From an uncultured Candidatus Saccharibacteria bacterium (lineage in GTDB: Bacteria > Patescibacteriota > Minisyncoccia > Phycocordibacterales > UBA9973): a DNA stretch of 64,000 nucleotides. Every line of letters begins with the position of its first letter. The stretch's first letter is position 1. Location of the stretch: assembly GCA_964500465.1 (NCBI GenBank), contig CAZCNB010000001.1, positions 34,567 through 98,566 of the forward strand, given 5' to 3'. The translations under genes were made by a program, and so were the position numbers. A model generated the notes under the pieces. It searched no databases, was not told where the DNA came from, and saw only the letters and a program-made list of their open reading frames with translations. Shown in pieces: positions 10,835 to 63,512 of this stretch.

Positions 10835-11197
10835 ATGGCAACAGCTAAAAAGACTACAAAAAAAGAAAAGGTAGAAAATACAGAATTTGCTGTAATTCTT
10901 ACGGGAGGTAAACAGTATAAAGTTGCTGTTGGTGATATTTTGAAGGTTGAAAAGATGGATGGAGAATACAAAAACGGAGACAAAATTGTTTTTGATAAAG
11001 TACTACTAGTTGATAACGGAACAGATACTACCATAGGCTCACCTTATATTCCTAACGCAAAAGTTGAATCACTGTTTCAAAAAGCAGGACGCGGTAAAAC
11101 AGTAAAAGTTGTTAAGTACAAACAAAAGAGCCGATACCTAAAGCGCAACGGACACAGACAACCATTCATTGAAGTTAAAATCTCAGCAATAAAATAA
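10835..11197 (+). CDS. rplU: Ribosomal protein bL21 with N-terminal Lys-rich extension
   Basis: FAVILTGGKQYKVAVGDILKVEK ... RNGHRQPFIEVKI typical L21. Confidence 0.9.
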   Translation: MATAKKTTKKEKVENTEFAVILTGGKQYKVAVGDILKVEKMDGEYKNGDKIVFDKVLLVDNGTDTTIGSPYIPNAKVESLFQKAGRGKTVKVVKYKQKSRYLKRNGHRQPFIEVKISAIK

Positions 11198-11224
11198 ACT
11201 CCCTAACTCGGGAGTTTATTTTAT
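11196..11224. terminator. Bidirectional intrinsic terminator (rplU / recR)
   Basis: aaactccctaactcgggagttt hairpin flanked by A/T runs. Confidence 0.7.
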
Positions 11225-11839
11225 TTAGGATCTATTTTTCAATGCATTTTTTATAGTTTCACTATCTGAATATTCTAATTCTGTTCCAGTAGAAAGACCT
11301 TTACCTAAAGAGACTATGTTTAAACCGTATTTTTTCTCAACCGATGATAGTGTTTCGCGTAAATACATATCTGTATGTTCTCCCTGTGGATTTAATGATA
11401 AAGCTATTATTATTTCTTTCAAAGTATTTTCTTTTGCTAAATTTTCAACCTTACTAATTAATTCTTTTATTCTCACAAAACTAGGAGTTTCTTTAGTTAC
11501 AATTGGAACTAACCCTCCCAATATAAAGTAAGCACCGCTATAGTTTTTGCTTCTTTTGATACTTTCAAAATCAGCATCTTTTTCTACAATCATTAAAACT
11601 GCTTTATCTGTTTTTGTGCTACTACATGTCTCACATGTAGAGCCTTTTGGTCCTTGAAAAAATAGAAAACAAGATGGACATTGATTTATAGAATTGCGAA
11701 GTGATAAAATTTCATCCCCCAATTCTTTTACATAATTTGGATTTTTATGTAATAAAAAATAAACAAAGCGTTTTGCTTGACGCTCACCAATACCAGGAAA
11801 CTCTTTGAATATTTCTGCTAATTTTTCAATTGGATTCAT
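11225..11839 (-). CDS. recR: Recombination protein RecR
   Basis: HhH N-terminus (FPGIGERQAKR), C4 zinc finger CPSC...CETC, Toprim domain. Confidence 0.9.
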   Translation of the reverse strand: MNPIEKLAEIFKEFPGIGERQAKRFVYFLLHKNPNYVKELGDEILSLRNSINQCPSCFLFFQGPKGSTCETCSSTKTDKAVLMIVEKDADFESIKRSKNYSGAYFILGGLVPIVTKETPSFVRIKELISKVENLAKENTLKEIIIALSLNPQGEHTDMYLRETLSSVEKKYGLNIVSLGKGLSTGTELEYSDSETIKNALKNRS

Positions 11840-45075: not shown

Positions 45076-46440
<1,365 letters not shown>

Positions 46441-46448
46441 TTAAAAAT

Positions 46449-46892
46449 ATGGCAAAACAATTACAACTTAAAATAGTAACACCTGAAAAACTAATTCTTG
46501 AAGATTTAGTTGAGTATGTTGTAGTGCCCACAACAGAAGGAGAGATAACAATACTTCCTGATCACGTGCCACTTATTGCAACACTTACATCGGGAGATAT
46601 CGTAGCCTACGAGGGAGGTGAGCATATTCCTATGGCAGTTGTAGGTGGATTTATAGAAGTTAAAAATTCAGATGGAAAAACAGAGGTAGCTATTTTAGCT
46701 GATTTTGCTGAACATGTTTCTGAAATCACAGAAGAAGCAATAAACACTGCTCGTACTCGTGCAGAAGAGCTAAAAAAGCAAGTAGAAAATAAAGAGGTTG
46801 TTGATTTTGAACACTTTGCAACAGAACTTGAAAGATCTCTCACTCGTGTGAAAATTGCAGATAAATGGCGAACAAGAAAATATAGGAAATAA
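46449..46892 (+). CDS. atpC: ATP synthase subunit epsilon
   Basis: LKIVTPEK beta-sandwich N-terminus plus helical C-terminus. Confidence 0.85.
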   Translation: MAKQLQLKIVTPEKLILEDLVEYVVVPTTEGEITILPDHVPLIATLTSGDIVAYEGGEHIPMAVVGGFIEVKNSDGKTEVAILADFAEHVSEITEEAINTARTRAEELKKQVENKEVVDFEHFATELERSLTRVKIADKWRTRKYRK

Positions 46893-46921
46893 AAAAGGCG
46901 GGATGTACAGTCCCGCTTTTT
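46891..46921. terminator. Bidirectional intrinsic terminator after atp operon
   Basis: aaaaaaggcgggatgtacagtcccgcttttt. Confidence 0.8.
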
Positions 46922-46938
46922 GTAAAAAACTTAAACAG

Positions 46939-47325
46939 TCAATCGTATTTGCTATGAACTTCTTTCTGATGCCACTTTCTCTTAAAGGATTTTTTAAAAA
47001 GTTCTTCAGTAGAAACCAGAAAATAAGTTATATAGAAAAAGATGGTAACAACAAAGAAAATTCCAACAGTAAGGAATGAATGTTTAAGGAATAAAACTAT
47101 TACAAAGAGAGCTGTAGAAGCTAAACCGATCCAGAAAACTCCTTTTTGATAATCTTCTTTGTACCCCTTGAAAATCAATCTAAGGGACACAATATGGAGC
47201 CCAAATACAATAACGATTATTTTGAATATAGAGTTTAGGGATACGTTTTCTTCTGGAAATTGGATAAAAGCATATATCCATAATCCTGGCATCAATAGGC
47301 TGAGTAAGAAGTTTATGTATTTCAT
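46939..47325 (-). CDS. Hypothetical 4-TM membrane protein
   Basis: ORF only. Confidence 0.35.
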   Translation of the reverse strand: MKYINFLLSLLMPGLWIYAFIQFPEENVSLNSIFKIIVIVFGLHIVSLRLIFKGYKEDYQKGVFWIGLASTALFVIVLFLKHSFLTVGIFFVVTIFFYITYFLVSTEELFKKSFKRKWHQKEVHSKYD

Positions 47326-47407
47326 GGTAAACAGTTTTACTAATTAAATCATTTATATTAAATATGTCAACTAAAAAAATTAACTAAAATAAGCTATATT
47401 ATTATCT

Positions 47408-48361
47408 ATGCAGAAAGAATATAAAGTAATCCTTTTCTATAAATATGTGCATATAGATGACCCTAAAAGGGAACGTGAAGCTCAATTTGAGCTTGCAAAA
47501 CGACTAAACATGAAAGGTCGTATGATTATTGCTCATGAAGGGATAAACGGAACATTTGAAGGAAAAAATGAAGCTTGTGATGAATACATGAAAATAATGA
47601 AAGCTGATCCTAGGTTTTTTGATATTCACTGGAAAGTCAGCGATGGAACAATAGACGGTACAGCATTCCCAAGACTCTCTGTAAAAGTCCGCAAAGAGAT
47701 AGTATCACTACATCTAGGTGATGAAGCAGACATTGATCCAAACCAAACTACTGGAATACATCTTAAACCTGAAGAACTAAGAAAATGGTATGAGGAAGGT
47801 AAGAAATTTCATATTGTTGATATGAGAAATGATTACGAGCTTCGTGTTGGCAAGTTTGAAGGCACAGTCTTTCCAGATTTAAATAATTTTAGAGATCTTA
47901 AAGAAAACATAAAAAAAATTGAAGATTTAAAAGATACTACAGTTCTCACAGTTTGTACTGGAGGAGTACGTTGCGAGAAAGCATCGGGCCTGTTAGTTAG
48001 GGAAGGTTTTAAAGACGTATATCAACTAGATGGTGGAATAGTGAGTTATATGGAAAAATATCCAGGACAAGATTTTAAAGGCTCGCTCTATGTGTTTGAT
48101 AAACGTATCGTTATGAATTTTGACGACCCAAGCAAACACGAAGTGATTGGGCGCTGTAGTAAATGCGATAAACCTAGTGAGCACTATGTAAACTGTGCGA
48201 ACCTTATGTGCCATGAACACTTTATATGTTGTGAAAATTGTTTAAAAACTAGTGCAGAGGACCATCCGCCTTACGGAGAAGCTTATTGTAATACTTGGTG
48301 CAATTTAAAATGGAAGTGGTATAGGTTCAGAAAAAATTTAAAACTCAAATTTGCTAGGTAA
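47408..48361 (+). CDS. trhO: Rhodanese-domain tRNA U34 hydroxylase TrhO (YceA/UPF0176) with Cys-rich C-terminus
   Basis: VILFYKY N-terminus, rhodanese active-site CTGGVRCEKA, C-terminal CxxC clusters. Confidence 0.8.
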   Translation: MQKEYKVILFYKYVHIDDPKREREAQFELAKRLNMKGRMIIAHEGINGTFEGKNEACDEYMKIMKADPRFFDIHWKVSDGTIDGTAFPRLSVKVRKEIVSLHLGDEADIDPNQTTGIHLKPEELRKWYEEGKKFHIVDMRNDYELRVGKFEGTVFPDLNNFRDLKENIKKIEDLKDTTVLTVCTGGVRCEKASGLLVREGFKDVYQLDGGIVSYMEKYPGQDFKGSLYVFDKRIVMNFDDPSKHEVIGRCSKCDKPSEHYVNCANLMCHEHFICCENCLKTSAEDHPPYGEAYCNTWCNLKWKWYRFRKNLKLKFAR

Positions 48362-48393
48362 CAGTCTTTTTGTAGTTATCCACAGCTTTTTTA

Positions 48394-48422
48394 TTGACTG
48401 TGAACGTTCGTTCACTTATACT
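48394..48422 (+). promoter_or_regulatory. Sigma70-like promoter TTGACT-N17-TATACT with embedded LexA (Cheo-type) box GAACGTTCGTTC
   Basis: Read directly: ttgact(48394-99) gtgaacgttcgttcact tatact(48417-22); GAAC-N4-GTTC at 48402-48413; 39 bp upstream of the small ORF-lexA operon. Confidence 0.6.
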
Positions 48423-48460
48423 ATTTATATAGTTAATTAGTAGTAATTATTAATAAATAT

Positions 48461-48667
48461 ATGAATAGAGAACAATACGTAAAAATAATAGAAAAAGAAC
48501 TACAGGCTCTAAATAAGAGAATAGACATGAAAATTCTCCAAGGGGTTGAATACAGGAAGGAAGCCCGAGATCACAAGATACTGCAGAAGAAAATGATGCA
48601 ACATTCTCGCAAGGGAATATTTAGTAAATTCTTGACTGCTGTACCTCAATTTATGATATTCTTTTAA
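48461..48667 (+). CDS. 68-aa protein with C-terminal hydrophobic tail, first gene of lexA operon
   Basis: ORF ends 3 nt before lexA start; helical/charged N-terminus, IFSKFLTAVPQFMIFF tail. Confidence 0.4.
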   Translation: MNREQYVKIIEKELQALNKRIDMKILQGVEYRKEARDHKILQKKMMQHSRKGIFSKFLTAVPQFMIFF

Positions 48668-48670
48668 TAT

Positions 48671-49237
48671 ATGAATGAAGATTACAAATTAAAACTCCAA
48701 TCCTTCTACCAACGAGAAAAACGCATGCCTACTTATGCAGAGATGATGAAGCTTTTTGGATTTAAATCAAAAAATGCTGTTGCACGCGTAGTTGATAAAT
48801 TCATAGAAGCAGGTATAGCGACAAAAGATCATCTTGGCCGACTACTTCCAAATGATTCCTTTAACAATGTTCCTCTCCTTGGTTCCGTAACTGCAGGATT
48901 TCCTGTAGATGTTGAAGAAGAAATGAAAGAAGCTATAAACCTAGATAACTACTTAATAAACAAAAAGGAAAATACCTATATGCTAGAAGTTGATGGTAAT
49001 TCCATGATTGACGCTCATATTGCCGATGGAGATATGGTTATTGTTGAAAAAACTAATGTAGCTCGCAACGGTGATATAGTGATAGCAAACGTTGATGGCG
49101 AATTTACAATGAAATATTTTAAAAAAGAAGGAGAGAAAGTTTGGCTGGAACCAGCAAATAAGGATTTTAAACCAATATACCCTAAACAATATTTAAATAT
49201 AAATGCAGTCGTAAAAGCTGTAATAAGAAAGTACTAA
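48671..49237 (+). CDS. lexA: SOS repressor LexA
   Basis: N-terminal HTH, cleavage-site VTAGFP (Ala-Gly), S24 peptidase Ser (DGNSM) and Lys. Confidence 0.85.
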   Translation: MNEDYKLKLQSFYQREKRMPTYAEMMKLFGFKSKNAVARVVDKFIEAGIATKDHLGRLLPNDSFNNVPLLGSVTAGFPVDVEEEMKEAINLDNYLINKKENTYMLEVDGNSMIDAHIADGDMVIVEKTNVARNGDIVIANVDGEFTMKYFKKEGEKVWLEPANKDFKPIYPKQYLNINAVVKAVIRKY

Positions 49238-49238
49238 T

Positions 49239-49532
49239 ATGAAAAAAGTAAAGAAACTTAGTCTTTTTACTGAGAGAGTTCTAAATGTTGTATCAAGTAT
49301 AAAAAGAGGTGAGACTATGACTTATAAAGAGGTAGCAACTCGTGCGGGTAGCTCAGGGGCAGCACGGGCTGTAGGTTCAATAATGAAGGCAAACTATCGA
49401 CCCAATGTACCATGTCATAGGGTTATTCGTAGTGATGGGAATATAGGAGATTATAATCGCGGTGGTAGAGGCGCAAAATTTAATAAGTTGAAAAGTGAAG
49501 GTGCTATTTTTAAAAATATTGATTATAATTAA
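49239..49532 (+). CDS. MGMT-family DNA-binding/alkyltransferase domain protein (stand-alone C-terminal domain, active-site Cys retained)
   Basis: TYKEVA..GSSGAARAVGSIMKANY..VPCHRVIRSDGNIGDY (PCHRV motif). Confidence 0.7.
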   Translation: MKKVKKLSLFTERVLNVVSSIKRGETMTYKEVATRAGSSGAARAVGSIMKANYRPNVPCHRVIRSDGNIGDYNRGGRGAKFNKLKSEGAIFKNIDYN

Positions 49533-49538
49533 ATCAAT

Positions 49539-50084
49539 ATGAAAGCAAAATTGATTTCAATACTTATAGGTCTAGCATTAGTAGTCGGAACCGGCACTTT
49601 AGTTTATAAAACAAAAAAACCGGTAGTCTTGCCATCCGATGAGGCTACAGAAAGTCAATCGACTATAAATAATACTAATGGGGTCCAGAATCAAATACCG
49701 GCAAGCAACAATACCACTACAACCTCCAAAAACAAATCTTTGTTCGATGACGACGATGAAGACGATGATGAGGATTTCAAAAGTAGTAGCAATTTAAATA
49801 CTACAGTAGTTACTCCTAAACCAACAACCACTACAACAACTACTACTTCAAGTGGTATTACTCTTACTACAATCGCAAAGCATAACAATAGATCTAGTTG
49901 TTGGTCAGCAGTAAACGGTAACGTATACGATTTAACTAGTTGGATACCAAATCACCCTGGAGGAGAACAAGCAATTTTGTCTATGTGTGGAGTAGATGGA
50001 TCAAATGGATACAATGGTCAACACAGTGGAGGTAAACCAGCTAGAATATTAGCAGGATTTAAAATAGGCACTCTTTCAAAATAA
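49539..50084 (+). CDS. Membrane-anchored cytochrome b5-like heme-binding domain protein with Thr-rich/acidic linker
   Basis: N-terminal TM; HNNRSSCWSAVNGNVYDLTSWIPNHPGG...GQHS matches cyt b5 HPGG motif and both heme-ligand His positions. Confidence 0.65.
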   Translation: MKAKLISILIGLALVVGTGTLVYKTKKPVVLPSDEATESQSTINNTNGVQNQIPASNNTTTTSKNKSLFDDDDEDDDEDFKSSSNLNTTVVTPKPTTTTTTTTSSGITLTTIAKHNNRSSCWSAVNGNVYDLTSWIPNHPGGEQAILSMCGVDGSNGYNGQHSGGKPARILAGFKIGTLSK

Positions 50085-50086
50085 TT

Positions 50087-50482
50087 ATGAATATAAATTT
50101 AACTAGACAAGAATTTGGTTTGCATTTACTGAGGCTTGGTCTTGCTGCAGTTTTCTTGTGGTTCGGATTCTCTCAATTGATGGACGGAATACACTGGGTA
50201 ACGATAGTTCCAGATTGGGCTGTTAGCTTTCTACATCTTCCACCAGCAATGATTGTGTTATTAAATGGATCATTTGAGGTAATTATGGCTACACTTCTTG
50301 CTATGGGATTTTTCGTGAGAATAACATCACTAGTACTTGCTTTACATCTATTACTTATAGCTTTTGACTTTGGATTTACTGCTACTGGTATAAGAGACCT
50401 TGGTCTTGTAATAGCAACTCTTGCTCTTTCTTTTATATTCACGAGAAAATCTTCTATTGAAGAAGTATCAATTATAAAATAA
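50087..50482 (+). CDS. DoxX-family membrane protein
   Basis: LLRLGLAAVFLWFGFSQL DoxX signature, 4 TM. Confidence 0.75.
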   Translation: MNINLTRQEFGLHLLRLGLAAVFLWFGFSQLMDGIHWVTIVPDWAVSFLHLPPAMIVLLNGSFEVIMATLLAMGFFVRITSLVLALHLLLIAFDFGFTATGIRDLGLVIATLALSFIFTRKSSIEEVSIIK

Positions 50483-50495
50483 TATTTATTCATAT

Positions 50496-50915
50496 ATGGA
50501 AATAAACATTTGGGCGGTGTTAGTGTGCACAATTTTAACTCTTGTCATAGGATTCATTTGGTATGGGCCAATTTTCGGAAAGAAATGGATGGAAATAACT
50601 GGAGCAGATAAGATGGATATGGAAAGAAGAAAAGAGATGATGAAAGGTGTATGGAAACTATATATTGCTCAAATAGCTTTAGCACTTCTTCAAGTATATG
50701 TTCTTGCTTGGTACATAAATACAATAGGAAACATATCTTCTGGTATTCATACTGCATTCTCTATATGGCTTGCATTTGTTATGCCTACTATTGCTGGAAC
50801 TGCAATGTGGAATAACGATTCAGCTAAAATATCTTGGGCTCGTTTCTTTATCCAATCTGGATATCAATTAATTATATTTATAGTATTTGGATTAATTCTT
50901 AGTTTTTGGAAATAG
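50496..50915 (+). CDS. Membrane protein (DUF1761-like)
   Basis: 4 TM, FIWYGPIFGKKW N-terminus. Confidence 0.4.
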   Translation: MEINIWAVLVCTILTLVIGFIWYGPIFGKKWMEITGADKMDMERRKEMMKGVWKLYIAQIALALLQVYVLAWYINTIGNISSGIHTAFSIWLAFVMPTIAGTAMWNNDSAKISWARFFIQSGYQLIIFIVFGLILSFWK

Positions 50916-50927
50916 TAAACAAAACAA

Positions 50928-51155
50928 TTGTATATACAAGTAAAAGTAAAAACCGGTCTTAAAAAAGAAGAGATTAATCAGAAAGATGATAATCACTTTG
51001 AAATTTCTGTTAAGGAAAAAGCTGAGCGGAACCTTGCAAACAACAGAGTGGTTGAACTTATCGCTCTATATTTCAAAGTTCCAAAATCGCAAATCAAAAT
51101 TATAAATGGTCATCATAGCCCGACCAAACTTTTATCTATAAGAGATGGGGAATAA
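50928..51155 (+). CDS. DUF167/YggU-like protein
   Basis: VKVKTGLKKEEI...NNRVVELIALYFKVPKSQIKIINGHHSPTKLL resembles YggU. Confidence 0.5.
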   Translation: MYIQVKVKTGLKKEEINQKDDNHFEISVKEKAERNLANNRVVELIALYFKVPKSQIKIINGHHSPTKLLSIRDGE

Positions 51156-51432
51156 GCAATACAAATTTATAGCAACTGTTTGGAAATGGCCAGGAGAAGG
51201 TCCATGGTATTTTGTAACTTTAGATAAAAAGATGTCAGAAGAGATACAAAACAAATATGGAAAGGGTATGATAAAGATTAGTACAACTATAGGCAAAACT
51301 ACATGGGATAATGCTCTTTTCCCTCATAAGCTATCCCAAGCATATCTACTTGCTATTAAAAAATTAGTGCGTGAGAATGAAAATATTTTTGAAGGAGACA
51401 AAGTAAAGATTAAATTTAATATTAAAAAGTGA
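51145..51432 (+). CDS. DUF1905 domain protein
   Basis: YKFIATVWKWPGEGPWYFVTL...GKTTWDNALFP pattern. Confidence 0.55.
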   Translation: MGNKQYKFIATVWKWPGEGPWYFVTLDKKMSEEIQNKYGKGMIKISTTIGKTTWDNALFPHKLSQAYLLAIKKLVRENENIFEGDKVKIKFNIKK

Positions 51433-51447
51433 TATAATGTAATCATT

Positions 51448-51843
51448 ATGAACACAATAAATATATTATATGTTTTTGGTGTTATAGGTGTAGTTGATAC
51501 ACTGTATCTTATTTATCATAAAGTTCGTGGTACTGACGTAGCGTGTGTATTTTTTCCAAAAGAATGGTGTTATAAAGTTCAGCACTCTCCTCAGAGCAAA
51601 ACATTTGGTATACCGAACTCTTATTTAGGCTTTCTAATGTACATATTAATACTTGCTATGACATATATGTTCACAACAGGATCATTAGTATTTTGGCCAA
51701 TTCAAGCAATAGTTACTTTTGGGTTTCTTTTTTCAATGTACTTTATATACATCCAAGGGTTTGTATTGAAAGCATTTTGTACTTGGTGTGTGGTATCAGC
51801 GATAAATTTTACAGTTATGATGATAGCTGTCTGGATGATTTAA
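51448..51843 (+). CDS. Vitamin K epoxide reductase (VKOR)-family membrane thiol oxidoreductase, stand-alone
   Basis: Loop Cys pair CVFFPKEWC and TM4 active site CTWC. Confidence 0.65.
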   Translation: MNTINILYVFGVIGVVDTLYLIYHKVRGTDVACVFFPKEWCYKVQHSPQSKTFGIPNSYLGFLMYILILAMTYMFTTGSLVFWPIQAIVTFGFLFSMYFIYIQGFVLKAFCTWCVVSAINFTVMMIAVWMI

Positions 51844-51846
51844 ACA

Positions 51847-52086
51847 ATGATATATATCGATGTAAGAACAAAAGAAGAATATGCTGATGGTCATAAACCA
51901 GGTGCTATACATCACGATATTATGGATATGATTTCTGGTATATATCCTCAGATAGATAGAGAAAGTGATGTAACTCTATATTGTGAATCGGGAAACCGTT
52001 CAATGATGGCAAAGACATTAATGGAAAATGCTGGATTCGTAAAAGTAATAGATGGTGGAGGTATAGAAAATTTTACTAATAAATAA
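51847..52086 (+). CDS. Single-domain rhodanese sulfurtransferase
   Basis: Active site loop YCESGNRS. Confidence 0.8.
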   Translation: MIYIDVRTKEEYADGHKPGAIHHDIMDMISGIYPQIDRESDVTLYCESGNRSMMAKTLMENAGFVKVIDGGGIENFTNK

Positions 52087-52095
52087 ATTTATAGT

Positions 52096-52332
52096 ATGAA
52101 AAAATTTAAAAATAGAAATGGAGGGTTTATTGGAATCTTGTTTATGTTAGTTGCCCTAGCAGCTATAATGATATATATAGTAAGACCAGACATAATAACA
52201 GGTAAAAAAGAAACTAAAGGAATGCTTGAACAAAATCTGGACGTAGTTCAGAAAGCAAAAGATATAAAATCAGTACTTGAAAAAAATTCAGCTAAACAAG
52301 CAGATGAAATAGATAAATTAAATCTTAATTAG
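52096..52332 (+). CDS. Small single-TM protein
   Basis: ORF only, last gene of operon. Confidence 0.3.
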   Translation: MKKFKNRNGGFIGILFMLVALAAIMIYIVRPDIITGKKETKGMLEQNLDVVQKAKDIKSVLEKNSAKQADEIDKLNLN

Positions 52333-52504
52333 TATTTAATTGACAGAAGTAGACATTTGTATCCTAAAGTTAAACTGTGGATAAGTCGCTATCATTAATT
52401 TTAAATAAGAGTAATATATGTAATGAGTCTCGTAAGTATGACGGATACGATCGTAAGTGAATATCTTCAATAGCAATATTGATAGCGCTTGTGAGTCTCA
52501 TAAA

Positions 52505-52530
52505 GAAAACCCCATCAGGGGCTTTTTTTA
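52505..52530 (+). terminator. Intrinsic terminator
   Basis: aaaaccccatcaggggcttttttt. Confidence 0.65.
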
Positions 52531-52557
52531 TACCTATATAAAAATATATAAAAAACC

Positions 52558-52588
52558 TTTACAAAAAGGACTTTAAGTATGGTATAAT
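52558..52588 (+). promoter_or_regulatory. Putative promoter (TTTACA-N19-TGgTATAAT extended -10) for SWIB gene
   Basis: Read directly; spacer slightly long (19). Confidence 0.4.
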
Positions 52589-52636
52589 GTAAGTATTACT
52601 AGTAAAACTTTAACGCTCTATTTTGAGCAAAAAAAT

Positions 52637-52894
52637 ATGCCAGCAACAAAAACATCCGCATTTATGAAACCTATGAATATCAGTGCTGACCTAGCAGCTG
52701 TAGTAGGTAAGGGTCCTATGCCTCGTTCAGAAGTTGTAAAAGCTCTATGGGCTTACATAAAAAAGAACGGTCTTCAAGATCCAAAGAATAAGCGCAACAT
52801 AAATGCAGACGACAATCTAAAGAAAGTATTCGGTGGTAAAGGAGTTGTAAACATGTTTGAAATGACAAAACTCGTTTCAAAACACCTTTCATAA
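52637..52894 (+). CDS. SWIB/MDM2 domain protein
   Basis: LAAVVGKGPMPRSEVVKALWAYIKKNGLQDP...INADDNLKKVFGGK...MFEMTKLVSKHL matches bacterial SWIB proteins. Confidence 0.7.
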   Translation: MPATKTSAFMKPMNISADLAAVVGKGPMPRSEVVKALWAYIKKNGLQDPKNKRNINADDNLKKVFGGKGVVNMFEMTKLVSKHLS

Positions 52895-52921
52895 GAAAAA
52901 ATATAATCTATCAATATAAAT

Positions 52922-52942
52922 GCCGCAGTAATGCGGTTTTTA
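52922..52942 (+). terminator. Intrinsic terminator after SWIB gene
   Basis: gccgcagtaatgcggttttt. Confidence 0.6.
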
Positions 52943-53007
52943 TATTTATCGATATAAAAGGAAAAAACGCGAACTCTAAGAGAACGCGCTTTTCATTGAA
53001 TTGGATT

Positions 53008-53214
53008 TTAGTCAGCTTTCTTAAACTGCAATCTTGGAATTAATAACCAAACCCCAATTAATATCACCGTAATAAGTGATAGGCAGTACACTGTTATACA
53101 AGCAACTGCCATTGGTTCTTTAATTAATTCATTCCAATGATTTATCATTATGGCACCCGTAGGCACCGCAAAGATAAAGAAGCCAACAAAAAGAACTGGG
53201 ATAACTCTTGTCAT
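53008..53214 (-). CDS. Small 2-TM membrane protein
   Basis: ORF only. Confidence 0.3.
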   Translation of the reverse strand: MTRVIPVLFVGFFIFAVPTGAIMINHWNELIKEPMAVACITVYCLSLITVILIGVWLLIPRLQFKKAD

Positions 53215-53337
53215 AGTTATGGATTTAATTGTGAGAATTATCTATATTATAGCATGTTTTTGCCTTATTTGTCAAATAAAATAACCTTATTTTACAGTGT
53301 TTTTTAAGAAAATTATCTAAAATGCTATAATTACTCT

Positions 53338-53952
53338 ATGAAAAAAAATTTAAAAAAAATACTAACCATAGGTTCTTTTGTGGCTTTAATTGTATTTTTA
53401 ATTAGCGGATACATACTAACAAAAGGAAAGGAAACTGAGTTTAATATACTGGAACAAAAAACGGCTGATTATAAAAAAACTACTCTTATAAGAGTATTAA
53501 GATCAGTAATAAGCTTGCCAGATGATAACAACATAACAGTGGGCATGAAAGATGGGGTTGGTAGTTATAAAATTCCTAGTATTAAAAGGGAAGGTGTATT
53601 AAAATTTGAAAATAATTTATTGACTACTAGTTTAGTAAAAGGAACATTTAAAATAGAAGATCCAAGACTAGACGCAATTATTCCTATGGCAGTTAGTTCT
53701 GATTCATTAGATGGATCAAAATACATTATATTATTTCACGATAGGGGGGACTTTGCTATTGAAAAATCGTATGCAAGAATTGGTAATTTAAATACAGAAA
53801 TTAAGAGTATTGAAATAATTGATAAAGACAAAGAAGTAAAAGAGCAGGATTATAGAGTGGTAATAAAATATTTAAATAATGGTAAGGAAAAAGAAACTAC
53901 TATACCAGTAGCTTCTGGGCATTTTGATCCTAGTAGGACGGTATCGAAATAG
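53338..53952 (+). CDS. Hypothetical membrane-anchored/secreted protein
   Basis: N-terminal TM/signal, no motif. Confidence 0.35.
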   Translation: MKKNLKKILTIGSFVALIVFLISGYILTKGKETEFNILEQKTADYKKTTLIRVLRSVISLPDDNNITVGMKDGVGSYKIPSIKREGVLKFENNLLTTSLVKGTFKIEDPRLDAIIPMAVSSDSLDGSKYIILFHDRGDFAIEKSYARIGNLNTEIKSIEIIDKDKEVKEQDYRVVIKYLNNGKEKETTIPVASGHFDPSRTVSK

Positions 53953-53954
53953 GT

Positions 53955-54113
53955 TTATCTTTTTGTCTCCCTCCAATCGTATTCTTCATCCTCATCATCT
54001 TTTTTATCAACAATTGGGGTGCCACAGTTAGCACACTCTTCATCATATGATCTTAAACCACATCTAGGACAAGTTGGATCATTTTTTGTAGCATCTTCTA
54101 ATTCTTCTTCCAT
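53955..54113 (-). CDS. Unlisted 52-aa acidic zinc-ribbon protein (MEEELEDATKNDPTCPRCGLRSYDEECANCGTPIVDKKDDEDEEYDWRETKR)
   Basis: Manual translation of minus strand; two CPxCG/CxNCG knuckles; below ORF-track length cutoff. Confidence 0.4.
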   Translation of the reverse strand: MEEELEDATKNDPTCPRCGLRSYDEECANCGTPIVDKKDDEDEEYDWRETKR

Positions 54114-54259
54114 AAAAATTATTATACTATATTAATATATAACAGAAAAAGTGCTAAAATATAAAATATTATTAGTAGAAAAAATTAAAATATATGGCAA
54201 AAGGAGTATCTCACAAGAAAGAAGCAAAGAAACCAAAGAAGGCAAAAAAGAAGTAGTAA

Positions 54260-54292
54260 CAAAAAACCCTCAATCATAATTGAGGGTTTTTT
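54260..54292. terminator. Bidirectional intrinsic terminator downstream of cspA
   Basis: aaaaaaccctcaatcataattgagggtttttt. Confidence 0.75.
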
Positions 54293-54302
54293 GTTAGGTT
54301 AA

Positions 54303-54500
54303 CTATGCACGTTGTACGTTTACAGCGCTAGGTCCTTTTGCAGTTTCTTCTGTGTCAAAAGTAACAGCATCACCTTCACGTAATTCATCGAATGATACGT
54401 TTACAAGAGAGTTACTGTGAAAGAATAGATCTTTTGCAAGTCCTTCTCCTGTTATGAAACCGAAACCTTTATCAGTAAGCTTTTTTATTGAGCCAGTCAT
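54303..54500 (-). CDS. cspA: Cold-shock protein (CSD)
   Basis: GSIKKLTDKGFGFIT RNP1 and DVSFDEL...VTFD RNP2 regions. Confidence 0.9.
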   Translation of the reverse strand: MTGSIKKLTDKGFGFITGEGLAKDLFFHSNSLVNVSFDELREGDAVTFDTEETAKGPSAVNVQRA

Positions 54501-54767
54501 TGATTTGATTTGTTATAAATTGTTAAAAATAAGATAGATGTATAAAAATCGACTTTTTTCTAGATAGACCTTATGTTCTAAGATATTACAATATTTAAAG
54601 TTTTTTGTCAAAATTTAGTATTATAAGATAATAAAATATTGACAAAATTTGATATAAATGATATTCTTTAAACGTTGAAATACTCCTAAGTGCGTGTATA
54701 TAAGTGTTTCAATCTTTTGCCTGATTTACAGGTAATTATTTATTTTTGAAACACGTAAAATTTAATT

Positions 54768-56048
54768 ATGATTACAAGCAGTAAAAAAAGCTCCAGTAAG
54801 AGCTCATATTCACACGGTCCCAAAAGACCTAATTCTAATTTTAAAAAGAGTTCGAGATCTGAATTTCGTAAAGATAAACCTTCATTTAGAGGTAAACCTT
54901 TTAATAATCGAAATAGTAGGAACAAGAAAAAAAATCTGTTTGAAAGAATAGATGTATCTAGGTTTATAAGCAAAGCAACTATTGTAGAGAAGGAAGAAAT
55001 ATATCTTCCAACTCACACGTTTAGTGATTTTGCTATAGATGCTCGACTAAAAACTGCAATTGCAAACAAACAATATATCTATCCAAGTCCTATTCAAGAT
55101 AAATCCATACCTCATGCACTTGAAGGCAGAGATATTTTAGGTATAGCAAACACTGGCACAGGTAAAACTGCAGCGTTTTTGATACCTATAATAAACAAGA
55201 TATTAAAAGATCATAAAGAAACTGCAATAATAATTGCCCCAACCCGTGAACTTGCGCTTCAAATAGAGAAAGAATTTGTAGAATTTACAAAAGGAATGAA
55301 AATATGGTCGGTATCTTGTGTTGGTGGTGCACCAATATTTGCACAAATAAAAAACCTACGCAGAGGATGTAATGTAGTTATAGGAACACCAGGTAGGTTA
55401 CTTGACCTTGTTAAGCGTAAAGAAATAGATTTATCAGACACTAAAAGTGTTGTGCTTGATGAAGCAGATAGAATGTTAGATATGGGATTCATAGATGATA
55501 TTACATTTCTTCTTGAAAAAACTTCCAAAGATAGGCAAGGCTTCTTCTTCTCAGCTACACTTCCAAAGCCTATAGAAAAGCTAATTGAAAAATTTGCGAA
55601 AGATCCAGTACGTGTGATGGTAAAGACACGTGATACTTCAAAAAATGTTGAACAAGATATTGTTCGTGTCGCTCGTGGAGTAGAGAAAATAGATGTACTT
55701 ACAGAATTGCTTCAAAAAAATGATGAATTCAAGAAAGTTGTAATTTTCTCAGAAATGAAACATGCAGTAGAGAAACTTGCAAACGAGCTAATCAAGAGGG
55801 GATTTAAAGCCGGTAGTATACATGGAGACAAACGACATAATGATAGGCAAAGAACTCTTAAAAAATTTAAAGACAACGAAATAAATATACTAGTTGCTAC
55901 AGATGTAGCTGCAAGGGGTTTAGATATTCCAAACGTGACTCATGTCATAAATTATGAAATACCTCAAACATATGACACCTACGTTCACCGTATAGGCCGT
56001 ACAGGCCGTGCTAGTGCCAAAGGTTTTGCCCTTACTTTTGTTGGTTAA
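54768..56048 (+). CDS. DEAD-box ATP-dependent RNA helicase with basic Ser/Lys-rich N-terminal extension
   Basis: Q-motif PSPIQ, Walker A ANTGTGKTAAF, DEAD (VLDEADRML), SAT, HRIGRTGRA. Confidence 0.9.
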   Translation: MITSSKKSSSKSSYSHGPKRPNSNFKKSSRSEFRKDKPSFRGKPFNNRNSRNKKKNLFERIDVSRFISKATIVEKEEIYLPTHTFSDFAIDARLKTAIANKQYIYPSPIQDKSIPHALEGRDILGIANTGTGKTAAFLIPIINKILKDHKETAIIIAPTRELALQIEKEFVEFTKGMKIWSVSCVGGAPIFAQIKNLRRGCNVVIGTPGRLLDLVKRKEIDLSDTKSVVLDEADRMLDMGFIDDITFLLEKTSKDRQGFFFSATLPKPIEKLIEKFAKDPVRVMVKTRDTSKNVEQDIVRVARGVEKIDVLTELLQKNDEFKKVVIFSEMKHAVEKLANELIKRGFKAGSIHGDKRHNDRQRTLKKFKDNEINILVATDVAARGLDIPNVTHVINYEIPQTYDTYVHRIGRTGRASAKGFALTFVG

Positions 56049-61244: not shown

Positions 61245-61366
61245 AAAATATATTTTATTATATTGTAATTTAAAATCTGATATTTGATATTTAGTTTTAT
61301 GGTTCTTAAAGTAGATTATTTAGTCTGTTTTAAGAACTATAAAACTTAAACTACAAAAATCTGATT

Positions 61367-61801
61367 ATGAAAAAAGATGTAAAAAACTTCCTGCTGGGAA
61401 TAAACAATCAATTATCACAACTTGATCTGTCAAAACCACTGACACCTGCACAGGCGAAAGAAGAAGCCATGAGAATTGTTTCGACAATTCCAAACATGGT
61501 GAAAAATTATTTTTTAATGAGGGAACAGATCCAGGTTTCTCCATTTGAAATAACAGTTTATTCCTTATATCAAAAGGAACTGGCAATGAAGGAACCTTTC
61601 GGTGGAGAACCTAAAAATCATTACAAAACCTTTAAAAAGGGTACTGTAGGATATTATCTCTGCCAGTACCTCTATGTCCTGGGATTTTATTTCCGGGTAT
61701 GGTGCGGCAAAATCGATATTTTAATGACATTACTTGGTGGAAGCACCGAGGAAACATTAAACTTTCTTCAACCAATAACCGAAGTAAATATCATTGATTA
61801 A
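61367..61801 (+). CDS. Hypothetical protein
   Basis: ORF only. Confidence 0.3.
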   Translation: MKKDVKNFLLGINNQLSQLDLSKPLTPAQAKEEAMRIVSTIPNMVKNYFLMREQIQVSPFEITVYSLYQKELAMKEPFGGEPKNHYKTFKKGTVGYYLCQYLYVLGFYFRVWCGKIDILMTLLGGSTEETLNFLQPITEVNIID

Positions 61802-61821
61802 ACCATATAAACCAAGCTGTT

Positions 61822-62262
61822 ATGAAATATGTAAATTGGACACTTTGGGTATCATCTGCCACAATAATACTTATTTTCATTCACCAATTACTGACCAAAA
61901 ACGGAACAAAAAGGCACCGTACAATGGGCTACATTGGAATGGCAGTGGGTGTAATAATATTTATTGTTGTATCAATCAGAGGATTCGCAAACAAAGAAAC
62001 ATTTAACCTGGCTTACGCAGTACATCTGCTTTCGGGTTTTCCTTTCTTTTATTTAATATTCCGTACAGGCTACCTTGGACATAAGGCCAAATATGACTCC
62101 AGGTACGCAAAGCGGCATCGCCGGGTAGCAAAAATTACTGCTATATTACTGGCAATAACACTATTAGTGGGAACAGTGGCAACACTATCCCACAAAAAAA
62201 AGAGTGTAAAAACAGATCAGAACCCCTCTGCTATGCATTGGGGTCTTTTTTATTTTACTTAA
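61822..62262 (+). CDS. Hypothetical 4-TM membrane protein
   Basis: ORF; terminator hairpin cccc...gggg+T-tract overlaps 3' end. Confidence 0.35.
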   Translation: MKYVNWTLWVSSATIILIFIHQLLTKNGTKRHRTMGYIGMAVGVIIFIVVSIRGFANKETFNLAYAVHLLSGFPFFYLIFRTGYLGHKAKYDSRYAKRHRRVAKITAILLAITLLVGTVATLSHKKKSVKTDQNPSAMHWGLFYFT

Positions 62263-62285: not shown

Positions 62286-63512
62286 ATGAGAGATAACGTC
62301 ACTCAAAATTTATTCCTTCACGCCGATGGAGATTCATTCTTCGTCGCTTGTGAATTAGTTGTAAACCCACAATATAAGGGTTTACCTGTAGTTGTTGGAG
62401 AAGACAGGGGAATAGCTGTAGCTATGAGTTACGAAGCAAAGAAACTCGGTGTAACTCGCGGTATGCCAGTATTTAAGATAAAGAAACAATTCCCACAAGT
62501 TATTATACTTCCGCATCATTTTGACCTATACAGAGAAATTTCAAGTAGTGTTTATGATATTCTTTCGTCCTACTTAGTTGAAGTTGAGCAATACAGTATC
62601 GACGAATGTTTTGCACTGGTAAAGCCTTCTGATATCACACACGCAGGTGGAGCTAATAAACTATTGAAGGATATTAAAAATGAGATTGAAAAGAAACTCG
62701 GAGTAACATTCTCTCTAGGACTTGCACGCACAAAAGCTTTGGCTAAAACTGCTTCGAAATTAGAGAAACCAAATGGCATTGTATTACTTATGAATAATAA
62801 TGACGAAGAGCAGGCTTTAAAAAAGACAGCTATTGAAGATGTTTGGGGTATTGGAAGACGTACCGTACCAAGATTACTTTCAATGGGAATAAAAACTGCA
62901 TATGATTTTGTGCATTACCCAAGTAGTACTATAGAGAAAAACTTTTTCGAACCATTAGTTTTACTACAACAAGAACTTGCAGGTATATCACACTATGACA
63001 TTGATTCGAATCCCGATCCGAGAGATCAGAAATCTATTCAATCAACTGCAACATTTAAACCATCGTCTTCTGATCCAAAGATAATATTTGCGGAACTTTC
63101 AGAAAATGTAGAGCACGCATGTGAACATGCTAGAGAACTTGATCTAATGACAAACTCTGTTTCTTTATTTATTAAAAATACTGAGTTTATACATAGGACA
63201 GGAGATACACATCTATCAGTTTATACATGCGATCCAAGTATAATACTAAACGCAATCGAACCTGTGTTTTACAAAATATTACGAAAAGGGGAAATGATTC
63301 GCTCAACTGGAATAACATTACAAAATTTACGTCGTAGTGAAGACGTACCTCAAGATTTATTTGGTGCACAAAAGAAATCAGAAGCAAAAGATGTAATTGA
63401 AAGAGTAGGGGATTTAATAAGAAAAAAATTTGGCCATAACGCACTTAAACGCGCATCCTCACTAAAGGGACAAGGGAGAAAAAGAGGGAATTCTTTTCCT
63501 GGGACAAGATAA
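62286..63512 (+). CDS. dinB: Y-family DNA polymerase IV
   Basis: LHADGDSFFVACE, VAMSYEAKKLGV, SIDECF catalytic motifs. Confidence 0.85.
   Translation: MRDNVTQNLFLHADGDSFFVACELVVNPQYKGLPVVVGEDRGIAVAMSYEAKKLGVTRGMPVFKIKKQFPQVIILPHHFDLYREISSSVYDILSSYLVEVEQYSIDECFALVKPSDITHAGGANKLLKDIKNEIEKKLGVTFSLGLARTKALAKTASKLEKPNGIVLLMNNNDEEQALKKTAIEDVWGIGRRTVPRLLSMGIKTAYDFVHYPSSTIEKNFFEPLVLLQQELAGISHYDIDSNPDPRDQKSIQSTATFKPSSSDPKIIFAELSENVEHACEHARELDLMTNSVSLFIKNTEFIHRTGDTHLSVYTCDPSIILNAIEPVFYKILRKGEMIRSTGITLQNLRRSEDVPQDLFGAQKKSEAKDVIERVGDLIRKKFGHNALKRASSLKGQGRKRGNSFPGTR

Follow-up and report, generated by a model that had tools for sequence, protein, structure and literature searches.

A lexA-led run of eleven small genes in a Candidatus Saccharibacteria genome reads as a mosaic of small units that includes a conserved cytochrome b5–DoxX pair

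A GAAC-N4-GTTC (Cheo) box marks the autoregulated lexA operons of Firmicutes and Actinobacteria, and the SOS response of Patescibacteria is said to have been the subject of a study published by Sánchez-Osuna and colleagues in 2017. In Acidianus, the thiosulfate:quinone oxidoreductase (TQO) DoxDA joins a DoxX/DoxD-family membrane subunit to an outside-exposed subunit and connects external redox chemistry to the quinone pool, its DoxD being a DoxX relative that takes part in an oxidoreductase complex. The diversity of LexA motifs has been reviewed (PMC7739468). In M. tuberculosis, a DoxX-family protein belongs to a membrane thiol-oxidoreductase complex, in the account of Nambi et al. 2015 that is cited in PMC7907618. 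VKOR has already been described in CPR bacteria, where genomes encoding both VKOR and MdbA-like families have the two adjacent in only 88 of 750 cases (Méheust et al. 2019, PMC6744442).

Here, we analysed a run of genes (48461-52332) that touches on all of these systems, within a window of 64,000 nt, by which we mean the whole stretch of DNA under analysis, from an uncultured Candidatus Saccharibacteria bacterium (GCA_964500465.1, contig CAZCNB010000001.1). The run begins with orf68-lexA and comprises 11 small co-directional ORFs, all on the + strand. The first-pass annotation had counted ten ORFs in one direction with gaps or overlaps of 12 nt or less; the common direction stands, the number does not, and the junctions (in order +3, +1, +6, +2, +13, +12, -11, +15, +3 and +9 nt) include two that are larger, all remaining at 15 nt or less. 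The domains that it named are exactly those recovered from the ORF list and Pfam. Although this is the window's longest chain of such junctions, 36 of the 61 same-strand junctions in the window are 15 nt or shorter (median 9 nt); tight packing is the norm of this genome, and the run is less special than it appears. We read it, with a probability of about 0.6, as a mosaic specific to its lineage, made of small units that are conserved independently of one another and crowded onto a Patescibacteria chromosome of very high gene density; the cytochrome b5–DoxX pair among them would be a redox unit. Gene neighbourhoods were compared in 80 species that carry the cytochrome b5 gene and at 80 VKOR loci.

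The first unit, orf68-lexA-MGMT, is a small, ordinary autoregulated SOS operon. The 188-aa lexA product (48671..49237) matches Peptidase_S24 (E=2.6e-31), exceeds the 110.95-bit cut-off of the NCBIfam lexA equivalog TIGR00498 with 143.4 bits, and retains the Ala75-Gly76 cleavage site, Ser111 and Lys148. Passage of the equivalog cut-off, together with a conserved Gram-positive-type operator in the promoter, confirms the identity first assigned to this gene. It is preceded by orf68 (48461..48667, 68 aa), the first gene of the operon, which has no match in Pfam or NCBIfam and whose orthologue lies directly 5' of lexA in the related loci L011, L012 and L028. Upstream of both is a promoter-like site on the + strand (48394..48422; 10/12 match in a consensus scan) consisting of a -35 TTGACT (48394-48399), a 17-nt spacer and a -10 TATACT (48417-48422), an architecture shared by L011 and L012. 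Between -35 and -10 lies the LexA operator GTGAACGTTCGTTCAC (48400-48415), a GTGAAC-N4-GTTCAC palindrome of the Gram-positive 'Cheo box' type. GAAC-N4-GTTC occurs once in the 64 kb, against 0.6 occurrences expected anywhere in the window (background, 21 sites in 1.40 Mb, or 0.015 per kb), and directly 5' of lexA in four other species (L011, L012, L028 and L072) the operator arms are kept while the spacer varies. About 9 nt 5' of the -35 is a DnaA-box-like 9-mer, TTATCCACA (48376..48384, + strand), of unexplained function; it has just two copies in the window, the second inverted (52376-52384), and holds the same place 5' of orf68-lexA in L011, L012 and L028. The third gene (49239..49532) encodes a 97-aa MGMT/Ogt C-terminal domain protein (PF01035, DNA_binding_1, E=4e-25; 72 bits for the TIGR00589 ogt superfamily, whose cut-off is 46) whose PCHR active-site motif starts at residue 58, with Cys59 kept. 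MGMT also lies downstream of lexA in L011 and L012, with an N6/N4 methylase and a 174-aa gene inserted between them in the former and a PIF1 helicase in the latter. LexA would bind the palindrome overlapping its own promoter, and DNA damage would derepress the operon through RecA-stimulated self-cleavage at Ala75-Gly76, yielding more of the small O6-alkylguanine-transferase-like protein. Some SOS transcription may run on past MGMT.

That the whole set stands under LexA control, as first proposed, is borne out in part: the lexA gene is real, its operator is conserved and read-through is possible, but conserved predicted -10 boxes precede the b5 and VKOR genes, and internal promoters were one of the two results that the first-pass annotation had named as refuting its proposal. 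A perfect predicted TATAAT on the + strand (49524..49529), within the last two MGMT codons, stops 9 nt short of the cytochrome b5 ATG; L011 and L012 have this box with identical spacing, and in L012 the upstream gene, inserted between MGMT and cytochrome b5, is on the opposite strand. Among b5 orthologous loci, 40 of 71 have a box with at least a 5/6 match 5-10 nt upstream. Likewise, a predicted extended -10, TGATATAAT (51430..51438, + strand), whose TGA is the DUF1905 stop codon, ends 9 nt before the VKOR ATG, and a box with at least a 5/6 match lies 6-9 nt upstream in 44 of 78 VKOR metagenomic loci (perfect TATAAT in 23). The background for such boxes is 9% for tightly packed internal genes and 9-34% over background gene classes, figures to be read for what are sequence predictions, not mapped promoters, in an AT-rich genome. 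The b5–DoxX pair is predicted normally to have its own near-leaderless promoter; which promoters fire, and how far SOS read-through extends, are matters of inference. A scan of 48461-52332 returned no + strand terminator-like site, in agreement with the first-pass annotation, so read-through from lexA into the later genes is physically possible and, as no terminator separates the units, so is a single long SOS-inducible transcript. Read-through probably stops at the first plausible terminator 3' of the run, a hairpin with a T-run (52506-52529). This terminator closes a non-coding-looking conserved element (52340..52529, + strand) of a TTGACA hexamer followed by about 150 nt, which lies directly 3' of orf78 in L011 and elsewhere in the locus in L012; it has no Rfam match and a folding z-score of only -1.2.

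The cytochrome b5–DoxX pair is the run's one conserved module, kept in dozens of these bacteria. The b5-like protein (49539..50084; PF00173, Cyt-b5, E=5.6e-18) has an N-terminal hydrophobic anchor (about residues 5-23), a linker of about 80 aa rich in N/T/S/D/E and a C-terminal b5 domain bearing His139 (in HPGG), His162, Cys121 and Cys150; both His and both Cys are invariant across 25 homologues. Among solved structures it comes closest to 1CXY, an entry for a bacterial cytochrome b5 (E=6e-14), with whose two Cys both of its own align; the AF2 model of the domain is poor (pLDDT 60). Such proteins had been thought rare, yet within the phylum the type is present in 90 protein clusters and 191 species-level genomes. 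The extracytoplasmic placement first suggested for the domain finds modest family-wide support in the positive-inside rule, with 35 homologues for N-in/C-out, 16 against and 25 ties, but not in the window protein itself, whose post-anchor flank (KTKK) is as positive as its N-terminal flank. Some homologues carry an xGAGC motif past the hydrophobic segment, a non-canonical sequence resembling a lipoprotein signal. The protein is membrane-anchored and probably extracytoplasmic and bis-His. Its partner (50087..50482; Pfam DoxX, E=1e-7) is a DoxX-family four-helix membrane protein whose gene lies directly downstream of the b5 gene, on the same strand, in 62 of the 80 species-level genomes, with a gap of -4 to +9 nt in 44 of the 62 pairs; conversely, Cyt-b5 was directly upstream in all six independently retrieved DoxX loci. 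The 149 proteins flanking the pair gave 199 Pfam families, none above 7 members. Five loci without DoxX have another multi-helix membrane protein of about 140 aa after the b5 gene, and in Actinobacteria b5 and a DUF2231 membrane domain form one fused protein. DoxX has invariant buried polar residues (E64, H87, R103 and D104), a single invariant His and no conserved Cys, and the sole solved protein of its fold, NACHO, works as an assembly chaperone rather than in redox chemistry, which counts against a redox reading of the pair. We found no published description of a cytochrome b5–DoxX pair in the literature.

The stand-alone VKOR (51448..51843, 131 aa; PF07884, E=9e-25) is an autonomous CPR disulfide-generating enzyme and forms the third unit. 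Its loop cysteines (C33/C41) and those of its CTWC active site (C111/C114) are all invariant among 24 Patescibacteria homologues (mean column identity 78%), and its relatives of solved structure include the VKOR of Synechococcus (3KP9 and 4NV2). As first noted, no fused or adjacent thioredoxin-like partner is found at this locus; the enzyme would act under its own promoter with its usual partner, an MdbA-like oxidoreductase, encoded elsewhere. Next to it, the 79-aa single-domain rhodanese (51847..52086; PF00581, E=7e-12) has the active-site loop CESGNRS with Cys46 and most resembles PspE in NCBIfam, under the cut-off. A rhodanese adjoins VKOR in 4 of 70 VKOR loci, upstream there and downstream in the window, and L070 alone has one beside the b5–DoxX pair. 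The other small genes are DUF1761, a membrane protein (50496..50915; PF08570, E=4e-25) that is not a conserved neighbour, lying near the pair in 2 of 80 loci only; two loosely recurrent neighbours, the YggU-like DUF167 (50928..51155; PF02594, E=2e-16), present in 7 of 80 b5 loci and directly downstream of VKOR in 7 of 76 VKOR loci, and DUF1905 (51145..51432; PF08922, E=3e-21), present in 6 of 80 b5 and 3 of 80 VKOR loci; and the last ORF, orf78 (52096..52332), a single-pass membrane protein with one hydrophobic segment (residues 11-29), no significant Pfam match and an orthologue in L011 only. Together with the rhodanese, these would be small genes drifting in and out of the neighbourhood.

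One reading of the run is that its eleven genes form a single LexA-repressed operon for DNA-damage-induced envelope thiol/redox repair, in which DoxX, rhodanese, VKOR and b5 cooperate. The operator sits at the only strong upstream promoter and ten consecutive short junctions follow with no intervening terminator, which fits this idea, as does L017, where rhodanese-VKOR-DUF1905-b5-DoxX are regrouped in another order, albeit without lexA. Against it, DoxX is the sole conserved neighbour of b5 among the named components: LexA, MGMT, DUF1761, DUF167, DUF1905, VKOR and rhodanese each occur in 1-7 of the 80 b5 loci (LexA 4, MGMT 3, VKOR 1), and neither Cyt-b5 nor DoxX was present in any of the 80 VKOR loci. 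The co-occurrence expected of a thiol/redox set in related genomes is therefore confined to b5–DoxX, and its lack for the other components is the second result that the first-pass annotation had named as refuting. At this locus DUF1761, VKOR and rhodanese are missing from the closest relatives, which carry the unrelated insertions or opposite-strand gene described above, and the conserved -10 boxes directly upstream of b5 and VKOR also tell against a single operon. The DoxX–rhodanese partnership once suggested here falls away, since comparison of the b5 and VKOR loci gave no conserved link between DoxX and either rhodanese or VKOR, and the rhodanese is a PspE/GlpE-like single domain, not an SseA-type partner. 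We consider the single-operon reading quite improbable. Near b5–DoxX or VKOR, some families (DUF167, DUF1905, rhodanese, TspO, cupin and an HI0933-like flavoprotein) turn up above the roughly 2% expected by chance, so a loose functional neighbourhood is possible.

Other explanations concern the pair itself. DoxX could serve the single-pass b5 protein, in the manner of NACHO, as a scaffold in the membrane or as a factor for its assembly, for example in heme loading, with the redox partner of the heme elsewhere; its lack of a conserved cysteine and its single invariant histidine agree with such a role. We regard this as unlikely, given that the buried invariant residues resemble a ligand or catalytic site more than a passive scaffold and that the bacterial DoxX relatives characterised so far, the mycobacterial protein (PMC7907618) and the DoxD of TQO, belong to oxidoreductase complexes. 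The replacement of DoxX by DUF2214-like or DUF2231-fusion membrane domains fits a scaffold and a redox partner alike. If the b5 domain were instead cytoplasmic (N-out/C-in), it could be a tethered electron donor, like microsomal b5, to DoxX or a lipid-modifying enzyme, as the three lysines of the post-anchor YKTKKP, at least matching the N-terminal flank, and the automatic JGI label of the homologues, 'cytochrome b involved in lipid metabolism', would allow. The family-wide charge bias argues the other way, as do the closest solved relative, 1CXY, which we take to be periplasmic and whose cysteines align with the invariant pair, the long Ser/Thr/Pro/Asp-rich linker, which we infer to be typical of monoderm exported stalks, and the lipoprotein-signal-like motif of some homologues, making a cytoplasmic domain very unlikely. 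Still less credible to us is a stalked heme-capture or heme-handling receptor of a heme-auxotrophic epibiont, in place of an electron carrier. The long flexible stalk would suit it, as would the lack of heme synthesis generally reported for Patescibacteria and the tetrapyrrole-binding TspO near the pair in 6 of 80 loci and in L171; yet a classical b5 fold with invariant bis-His ligation is the hallmark of a heme held tightly for electron transfer, DoxX is not among known transporter families, and ABC or Isd-type uptake genes do not recur among the flanking-protein families.

Our reading of the pair remains that of a putative membrane redox unit with two components. On its anchor and flexible linker, the b5 domain would probably sit at the outer face, carrying a bis-His heme b (His139/His162), with Cys121-Cys150 forming a structural disulfide. 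The four-helix DoxX would be its membrane partner and may couple the heme, through E64, H87, R103 and D104, to a redox carrier that is either soluble in lipid or located in the cytoplasm. Against this reading, quinone synthesis, like that of heme, is generally reported missing from Patescibacteria, so both cofactors would need to be scavenged.

Compared with known systems, the first unit resembles the autoregulated lexA operons of Firmicutes and Actinobacteria in its palindromic operator overlapping the lexA promoter and in the DNA-repair gene downstream, but differs in that a conserved 68-aa ORF precedes lexA. The VKOR is the same stand-alone enzyme, with all four catalytic cysteines, as in the CPR/Actinomyces VKOR–MdbA pathway (PMC6744442), here without an adjacent MdbA-like partner. 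With the DoxX–SseA–SodA membrane-associated complex of M. tuberculosis (Nambi et al. 2015, cited in PMC7907618), the pair shares a DoxX-family integral membrane protein, which there works with non-membrane redox partners in oxidative or thiol stress; here, however, the conserved partner is a heme b5, where the mycobacterial complex has a sulfurtransferase and a superoxide dismutase. The local single-domain rhodanese of 79 aa is not conserved beside DoxX, and the window locus has no SodA. NACHO/TMEM35A (PDB 9H9E chain C) differs in being a eukaryotic ER chaperone that helps ion channels to assemble; it is 15% identical and has no part in redox chemistry. The b5 domain shares the HPGG His, the second His and both Cys with 1CXY, the soluble cytochrome b558 of Ectothiorhodospira vacuolata and likewise an exported bacterial b5, whereas in the window protein the domain follows an N-terminal membrane anchor and 80 aa of low-complexity linker, has no 4-residue insertion ahead of the second His, and is genetically paired with DoxX. 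1CXY is presumably a periplasmic protein whose two Cys form a disulfide. Although no DoxA homologue is present, the partner of DoxX being a cytochrome b5 domain and the quinone link hypothetical, the pair shares with Acidianus DoxDA a membrane DoxX-family subunit and an externally exposed partner, and it is this arrangement that provides the mechanistic template for our reading.

An alignment of the cytochrome b5 domain, scanned over one genome per species, found 191 stretches that encode a relative; 80 loci were kept (b5 domains 51-88% identical to that of the window), and iterated profiles of all genes in the lexA-led run were then searched against their ORFs. DoxX was recovered in 62 of the 80 b5 loci, DUF167 in 7, DUF1905 in 6, LexA in 4, MGMT in 3, DUF1761 in 2 and VKOR in 1. 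Where DoxX accompanies b5, it always lies on the same strand and immediately downstream, with a gap of -4 to +9 nt in 44 of the 62 cases. Approached from the other side, six DoxX homologues, 57-69% identical to that of the window and picked solely for their long contigs, all have Cyt-b5 immediately upstream on the same strand (6/6), and the flanks of the six loci are mutually unrelated. The pairing of the b5 gene (49539-50084) with the DoxX gene (50087-50482) is reciprocal and fixed in orientation across divergent genomes. The homologues of b5, VKOR and DoxX come almost exclusively from metagenome-assembled genomes of Patescibacteria/CPR. We found no mention of the pairing in the searchable literature, and the top-ranked papers on Patescibacteria/CPR do not include cytochrome b5.

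Five of the loci without DoxX carry another multi-helix membrane protein of about 140 aa, with weak similarity to DUF2214, at the +1 position; a DUF2214-like gene follows b5 in loci L043, L058, L072 and L079. Homologues from Actinobacteria carry b5 and a DUF2231 membrane domain in one fused protein (L078, 7452-8231; L084, 7129-7896). These arrangements suggest that the membrane partners of an exported b5 heme domain are interchangeable. Beyond the pair, a Pfam census of 149 flanking proteins counted 199 families with at most 7 members each. An HI0933-like flavoprotein (6/80), TspO (6/80) and a cupin (5/80) were considered as a third obligate member, and were rejected as they recur weakly. Genes for TspO/MBR (tetrapyrrole-binding), a small cupin and the HI0933-like flavoprotein lie loosely near both b5–DoxX and VKOR (5-9/80 loci each; L017, L012, L171, L014, L016 and L026, plus nine VKOR loci such as L134), which hints at a shifting neighbourhood of small stress/redox genes, not fixed operons.

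The first-pass annotation had placed b5 and DoxX within a single SOS-controlled thiol/redox membrane module headed by lexA. The run at 48461-52332 is indeed co-directional, but it comprises 11 ORFs rather than ten. The family assignments made from the raw sequence were all correct in a Pfam search of the run proteins, which returned Peptidase_S24 (LexA), DNA_binding_1 (the MGMT C-terminal domain), Cyt-b5, DoxX, DUF1761, DUF167, DUF1905, VKOR and Rhodanese; orf68 and orf78, the first and last ORFs, have no family in this search. Its junctions are, in order, +3, +1, +6, +2, +13, +12, -11, +15, +3 and +9 nt, so that the proposed limit of 12 nt applies to most of them but is exceeded by two (+13 and +15 nt). 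A terminator scan found no + strand terminator-like site inside the run, as had been stated, and the first plausible terminator past it is a hairpin with a T-run at 52506-52529. An Rfam scan of 46000-55000, with E up to 1, matched neither the run nor the spacer that follows it (52333-52636). Although the run is the longest chain of junctions of 15 nt or less in the window, 36 of the 61 same-strand junctions in the window are this short (median 9 nt); tight packing is therefore the norm for this genome and no sign of functional coupling. In these very compact genomes, long and tight co-directional runs are not evidence for a functional operon. The gene setting is that of an ordinary chromosome, with ATP synthase, tRNA synthetases, DnaB, FtsW and glycolysis genes, and several metagenomes carry the identical locus.

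Cross-species comparison argues against one module. In addition to the low counts across b5 loci, a small stand-alone rhodanese-like ORF lies within ±8 kb in just a handful of the 80, and directly adjoins the pair in L070 only; conversely, neither Cyt-b5 nor DoxX occurs in any of 80 metagenomic VKOR loci (0/80 each). Synteny is also broken in the near relatives. In L011 (b5 domain 88% identical), an N6/N4 DNA methylase and a 174-aa gene separate lexA from MGMT, and DUF1761, VKOR and rhodanese are missing from the locus. In L012 (83% identical), a PIF1 helicase follows lexA, an opposite-strand 271-aa gene separates MGMT from b5, and DUF167 is parted from DUF1905 by three genes, one of them TspO. 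In a further locus, L017, the order is TspO-rhodanese-VKOR-DUF1905-b5-DoxX-flavoprotein, with no lexA.

Co-transcription of the whole run from the lexA promoter, with induction by DNA damage, would be possible given that no terminator intervenes, but conserved predicted -10 boxes immediately before b5 and VKOR, like the broken synteny in L011 and L012, speak against it. A consensus promoter scan returned fewer sites than shuffled sequence (23 versus 31), so internal promoters were judged instead by positional conservation across species. A perfect predicted TATAAT (49524-49529, +) ends 9 nt before the b5 ATG, and a predicted box TGATATAAT (51430-51438, +) ends 9 nt before the VKOR ATG. Of 71 b5 loci, 40 have a box matching in at least 5 of 6 positions at 5-10 nt before the gene, and of 78 VKOR loci, 44 have one at 6-9 nt. 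By the same test, the background is 9% among internal genes in tight packing, 20% among genes that are likely first in their unit and 34% among those in between. When the search range for b5 is widened to 4-21 nt, 50 of the 71 loci have a box, 23 of these 50 with a TGn extension; for VKOR, a wider range yields 23 perfect TATAAT boxes. The b5 box is kept at unchanged distance in both L011 and L012, and in L012, where the gene upstream of b5 is on the opposite strand, it must act as a promoter. These predictions point to b5 and VKOR units that normally have their own near-leaderless promoters, retained in this genome. The first-pass annotation had named two kinds of result that would count against its module, an internal promoter or terminator and missing co-occurrence in related genomes; lack of co-occurrence and predicted internal promoters are both seen here. 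The neighbourhood tests and the conserved near-leaderless boxes together divide the run into separate units, and a DNA-damage-induced envelope redox system would be, at most, a lineage-specific by-product of read-through. More broadly, in these Patescibacteria (loci L011-L170) the start codon of many genes follows the end of a TATAAT or TGnTATAAT box by no more than 6-9 nt, which implies leaderless or near-leaderless mRNAs; the signal is found at 20-56% of likely transcription-unit starts versus 9% of internal genes, and further examples in the window lie upstream of 53338 (orf204) and 47408 (TrhO).

What does stand of the earlier proposal is control of the orf68-lexA promoter by LexA, borne out by an equivalog LexA and a conserved predicted operator. 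LexA scores 143.4 bits against TIGR00498 (NCBIfam lexA equivalog; cut-off 110.95), and its S24 autopeptidase domain has the A75-G76 cleavage site and the S111 and K148 dyad. In the consensus scan, a predicted promoter (TTGACT-17-TATACT; 48394-48422, +) lies upstream of orf68, and the palindrome GTGAACGTTCGTTCAC (48400-48415), the predicted LexA operator, overlaps it between the -35 and -10. It is the single copy of GAAC-N4-GTTC in 64 kb, where 0.6 would be expected anywhere in the window, and this motif occurs 21 times in 1.40 Mb of fetched loci; a 16-mer operator search allowing up to 2 mismatches recovered the lexA site alone. In L011, L012 and L028 the palindrome immediately precedes orf68-lexA, and in L072 it precedes lexA; it has fixed arms and a spacer that varies across species (GTTC, GCTC, GAGC, GCTT, GATC). 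Fixed arms with a variable spacer before lexA are, on sequence grounds, the signature of a Gram-positive-type LexA operator, and the GTGAAC-N4-GTTCAC operator could serve as a query for SOS regulons in the genomes of relatives. That a PIF1-like helicase and then MGMT follow lexA in L012 indicates that DNA repair is the conserved theme of this operon.

Several features around lexA merit record. An ORF of 67-68 aa without a family always precedes it (window 48461-48667; L011 5179-5385; L012 4065-4271; L028 11632-11835); its product seems to consist of a predicted long helix and, after it, a hydrophobic tail at the C-terminus. From its place within the LexA-controlled operon, orf68 is a speculative candidate for an SOS effector, such as one of the small cell-division inhibitors whose genes adjoin lexA in Gram-positive bacteria. 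A DnaA-box consensus, TTATCCACA(G), lies about 9 nt upstream of the lexA -35 and is conserved in four species (window 48376-48384, +; L011 5093, +; L012 3980; L028 11578), and an inverted copy lies just past the last ORF of the run in the window (52376-52384, -) and in L011 (11120, -). The 64-kb window has no copies besides these two, and 1.4 Mb of loci hold 26; the sites could reflect DnaA-dependent control of the SOS operon or binding of another factor. Close relatives show an insertion hotspot immediately after lexA: in L011 the methylase and 174-aa gene (5968-7357) are possibly a restriction-modification pair, and in L012 the insertions are the PIF1-like helicase (4855-6525) and the opposite-strand gene (6808-7623). 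Elsewhere in the window, a Y-family (ImpB/MucB/SamB) translesion polymerase gene (62286-63512, +) is preceded by two family-less ORFs of 144-146 aa (61367-62262); no LexA box was found upstream of it, even with 2 mismatches, and a 9-nt inverted repeat, GTTCTTAAA...TTTAAGAAC, lies nearby at about 61303-61338. Past the run, a conserved unit of about 190 nt combines a TTGACA hexamer with a strong terminator (window 52340-52529; L011 about 11080-11275; L012 about 15790-16010). By manual reading only, one frame in L011 and L012 seems to encode a small hydrophobic peptide, ...RKYDG.D...SS[IV]AILIALV[SG]LIKK; in the window this frame, read likewise by hand, has an in-frame TGA, and the DNA is identical in the same-species strains L001-L008. 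The unit has no Rfam match, and its fold z-score of only -1.2 gives no support to a structured RNA. A type-I-toxin-like small ORF, or else an sRNA, may lie here beside the SOS operon.

VKOR (PF07884, 87.7 bits) has a four-helix domain related to 3KP9 and 4NV2. The stand-alone protein has a mean column identity of 78%, and C33 and C41 (the loop pair) and C111 and C114 (CXXC) are invariant. Its neighbours recur weakly: DUF167 is immediately downstream in 7/76 loci, rhodanese immediately upstream in 4/70, DUF1905 nearby in 3, and a TspO-like protein nearby in 9 of the 80. The run contains no fused or adjacent thioredoxin-like partner, in agreement with the first-pass annotation, and the recurrent neighbour clusters listed for the 80 VKOR loci include no DsbA/MdbA-type partner. 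VKOR in CPR bacteria has been described, with an MdbA-like oxidoreductase as likely partner, adjacent in 88/750 genomes (Méheust et al. 2019, PMC6744442). Since adjacency is this infrequent, the missing neighbour is typical and not anomalous.

In the b5 protein of the conserved pair, a hydrophobic N-terminal anchor (about residues 5-23) is followed by a low-complexity linker of 80 aa and then by the b5 domain (PF00173, 65 bits), where H139 (HPGG) and H162, the two predicted axial heme ligands, are invariant among 25 homologues, as are C121 and C150. Among solved structures, the closest relative is the bacterial cytochrome b5 entry 1CXY (E=6e-14), understood to be cytochrome b558, a periplasmic protein of Ectothiorhodospira vacuolata; the two cysteines of 1CXY, which presumably form a disulfide, align with C121 and C150. 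An AF2 model of the domain from a 25-sequence alignment was of low confidence (pLDDT 60.4) and was therefore left out of fold searches. DoxX scores 32.8 bits against PF07681 (cut-off 23.6).

Charge bias across the b5 family favours an N-in/C-out orientation (35 for, 16 against, 25 ties); as this bias is modest, the domain is probably, and no more than probably, extracytoplasmic. No canonical lipobox or signal-peptidase site was found in the b5 protein, and an apparent lipoprotein signal (xGAGC in P0081 and P0087) was downgraded because it does not fit the canonical lipobox. b5 and DoxX would form a two-component membrane redox unit, with DoxX as the link between the tethered b5 heme and a redox carrier in the membrane or the cytoplasm. 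Rival readings are that DoxX serves as a scaffold or chaperone, that b5 faces the cytoplasm, or that b5 acts in heme capture. We favour the redox unit because a DoxX-family protein belongs to a mycobacterial complex, because DoxD is part of a quinone oxidoreductase, and because in other lineages small membrane domains of other kinds adjoin b5 or are fused to it. The mycobacterial precedent is a membrane thiol-oxidoreductase complex in M. tuberculosis, as PMC7907618 cites it (Nambi et al. 2015).

Extended to its full reach, the redox-unit reading would make anchored b5 and DoxX a previously undescribed extracytoplasmic electron-transfer module that is widespread among Patescibacteria, with DUF2214-like-paired and DUF2231-fused analogues. 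It would serve ultrasmall, heme- and quinone-auxotrophic cells through an electron flow that connects quinones scavenged into the membrane, or a donor in the cytoplasm, with oxidants outside the cell or substrates on the host surface. Since the pair now lies behind lexA in this lineage, read-through would make it partly DNA-damage-inducible here. We hold this full reading tentatively, at a probability of roughly one in four. To our knowledge, Patescibacteria (CPR) are usually described without respiratory chains, heme synthesis or quinone synthesis. A probable surface heme b protein with a membrane partner would be among the few candidate envelope redox devices in Patescibacteria, and could bear on oxygen tolerance, redox exchange with hosts and cofactor scavenging.

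The run shares a DoxX-family membrane protein with the mycobacterial DoxX–SseA–SodA complex, but whereas SseA is a two-domain sulfurtransferase type, the sole rhodanese of the run is a 79-aa single domain that best resembles PspE. No SOD was found in the Pfam search of the run proteins, and DoxA has no family match among these proteins or in the 25 most frequent of the 199 families flanking the pair. Lacking these defining partners, the run is a member of neither DoxX–SseA–SodA nor TQO DoxDA. Taken singly, the lexA operon, VKOR and the b5 fold belong to known kinds. We rate b5–DoxX as a new pairing whose members are of known kinds, a membrane protein of the DoxX family together with a probable redox partner outside the cytoplasm, and one that adds b5, beside DoxA and SseA/SodA, to the natural partners of the poorly understood DoxX family.
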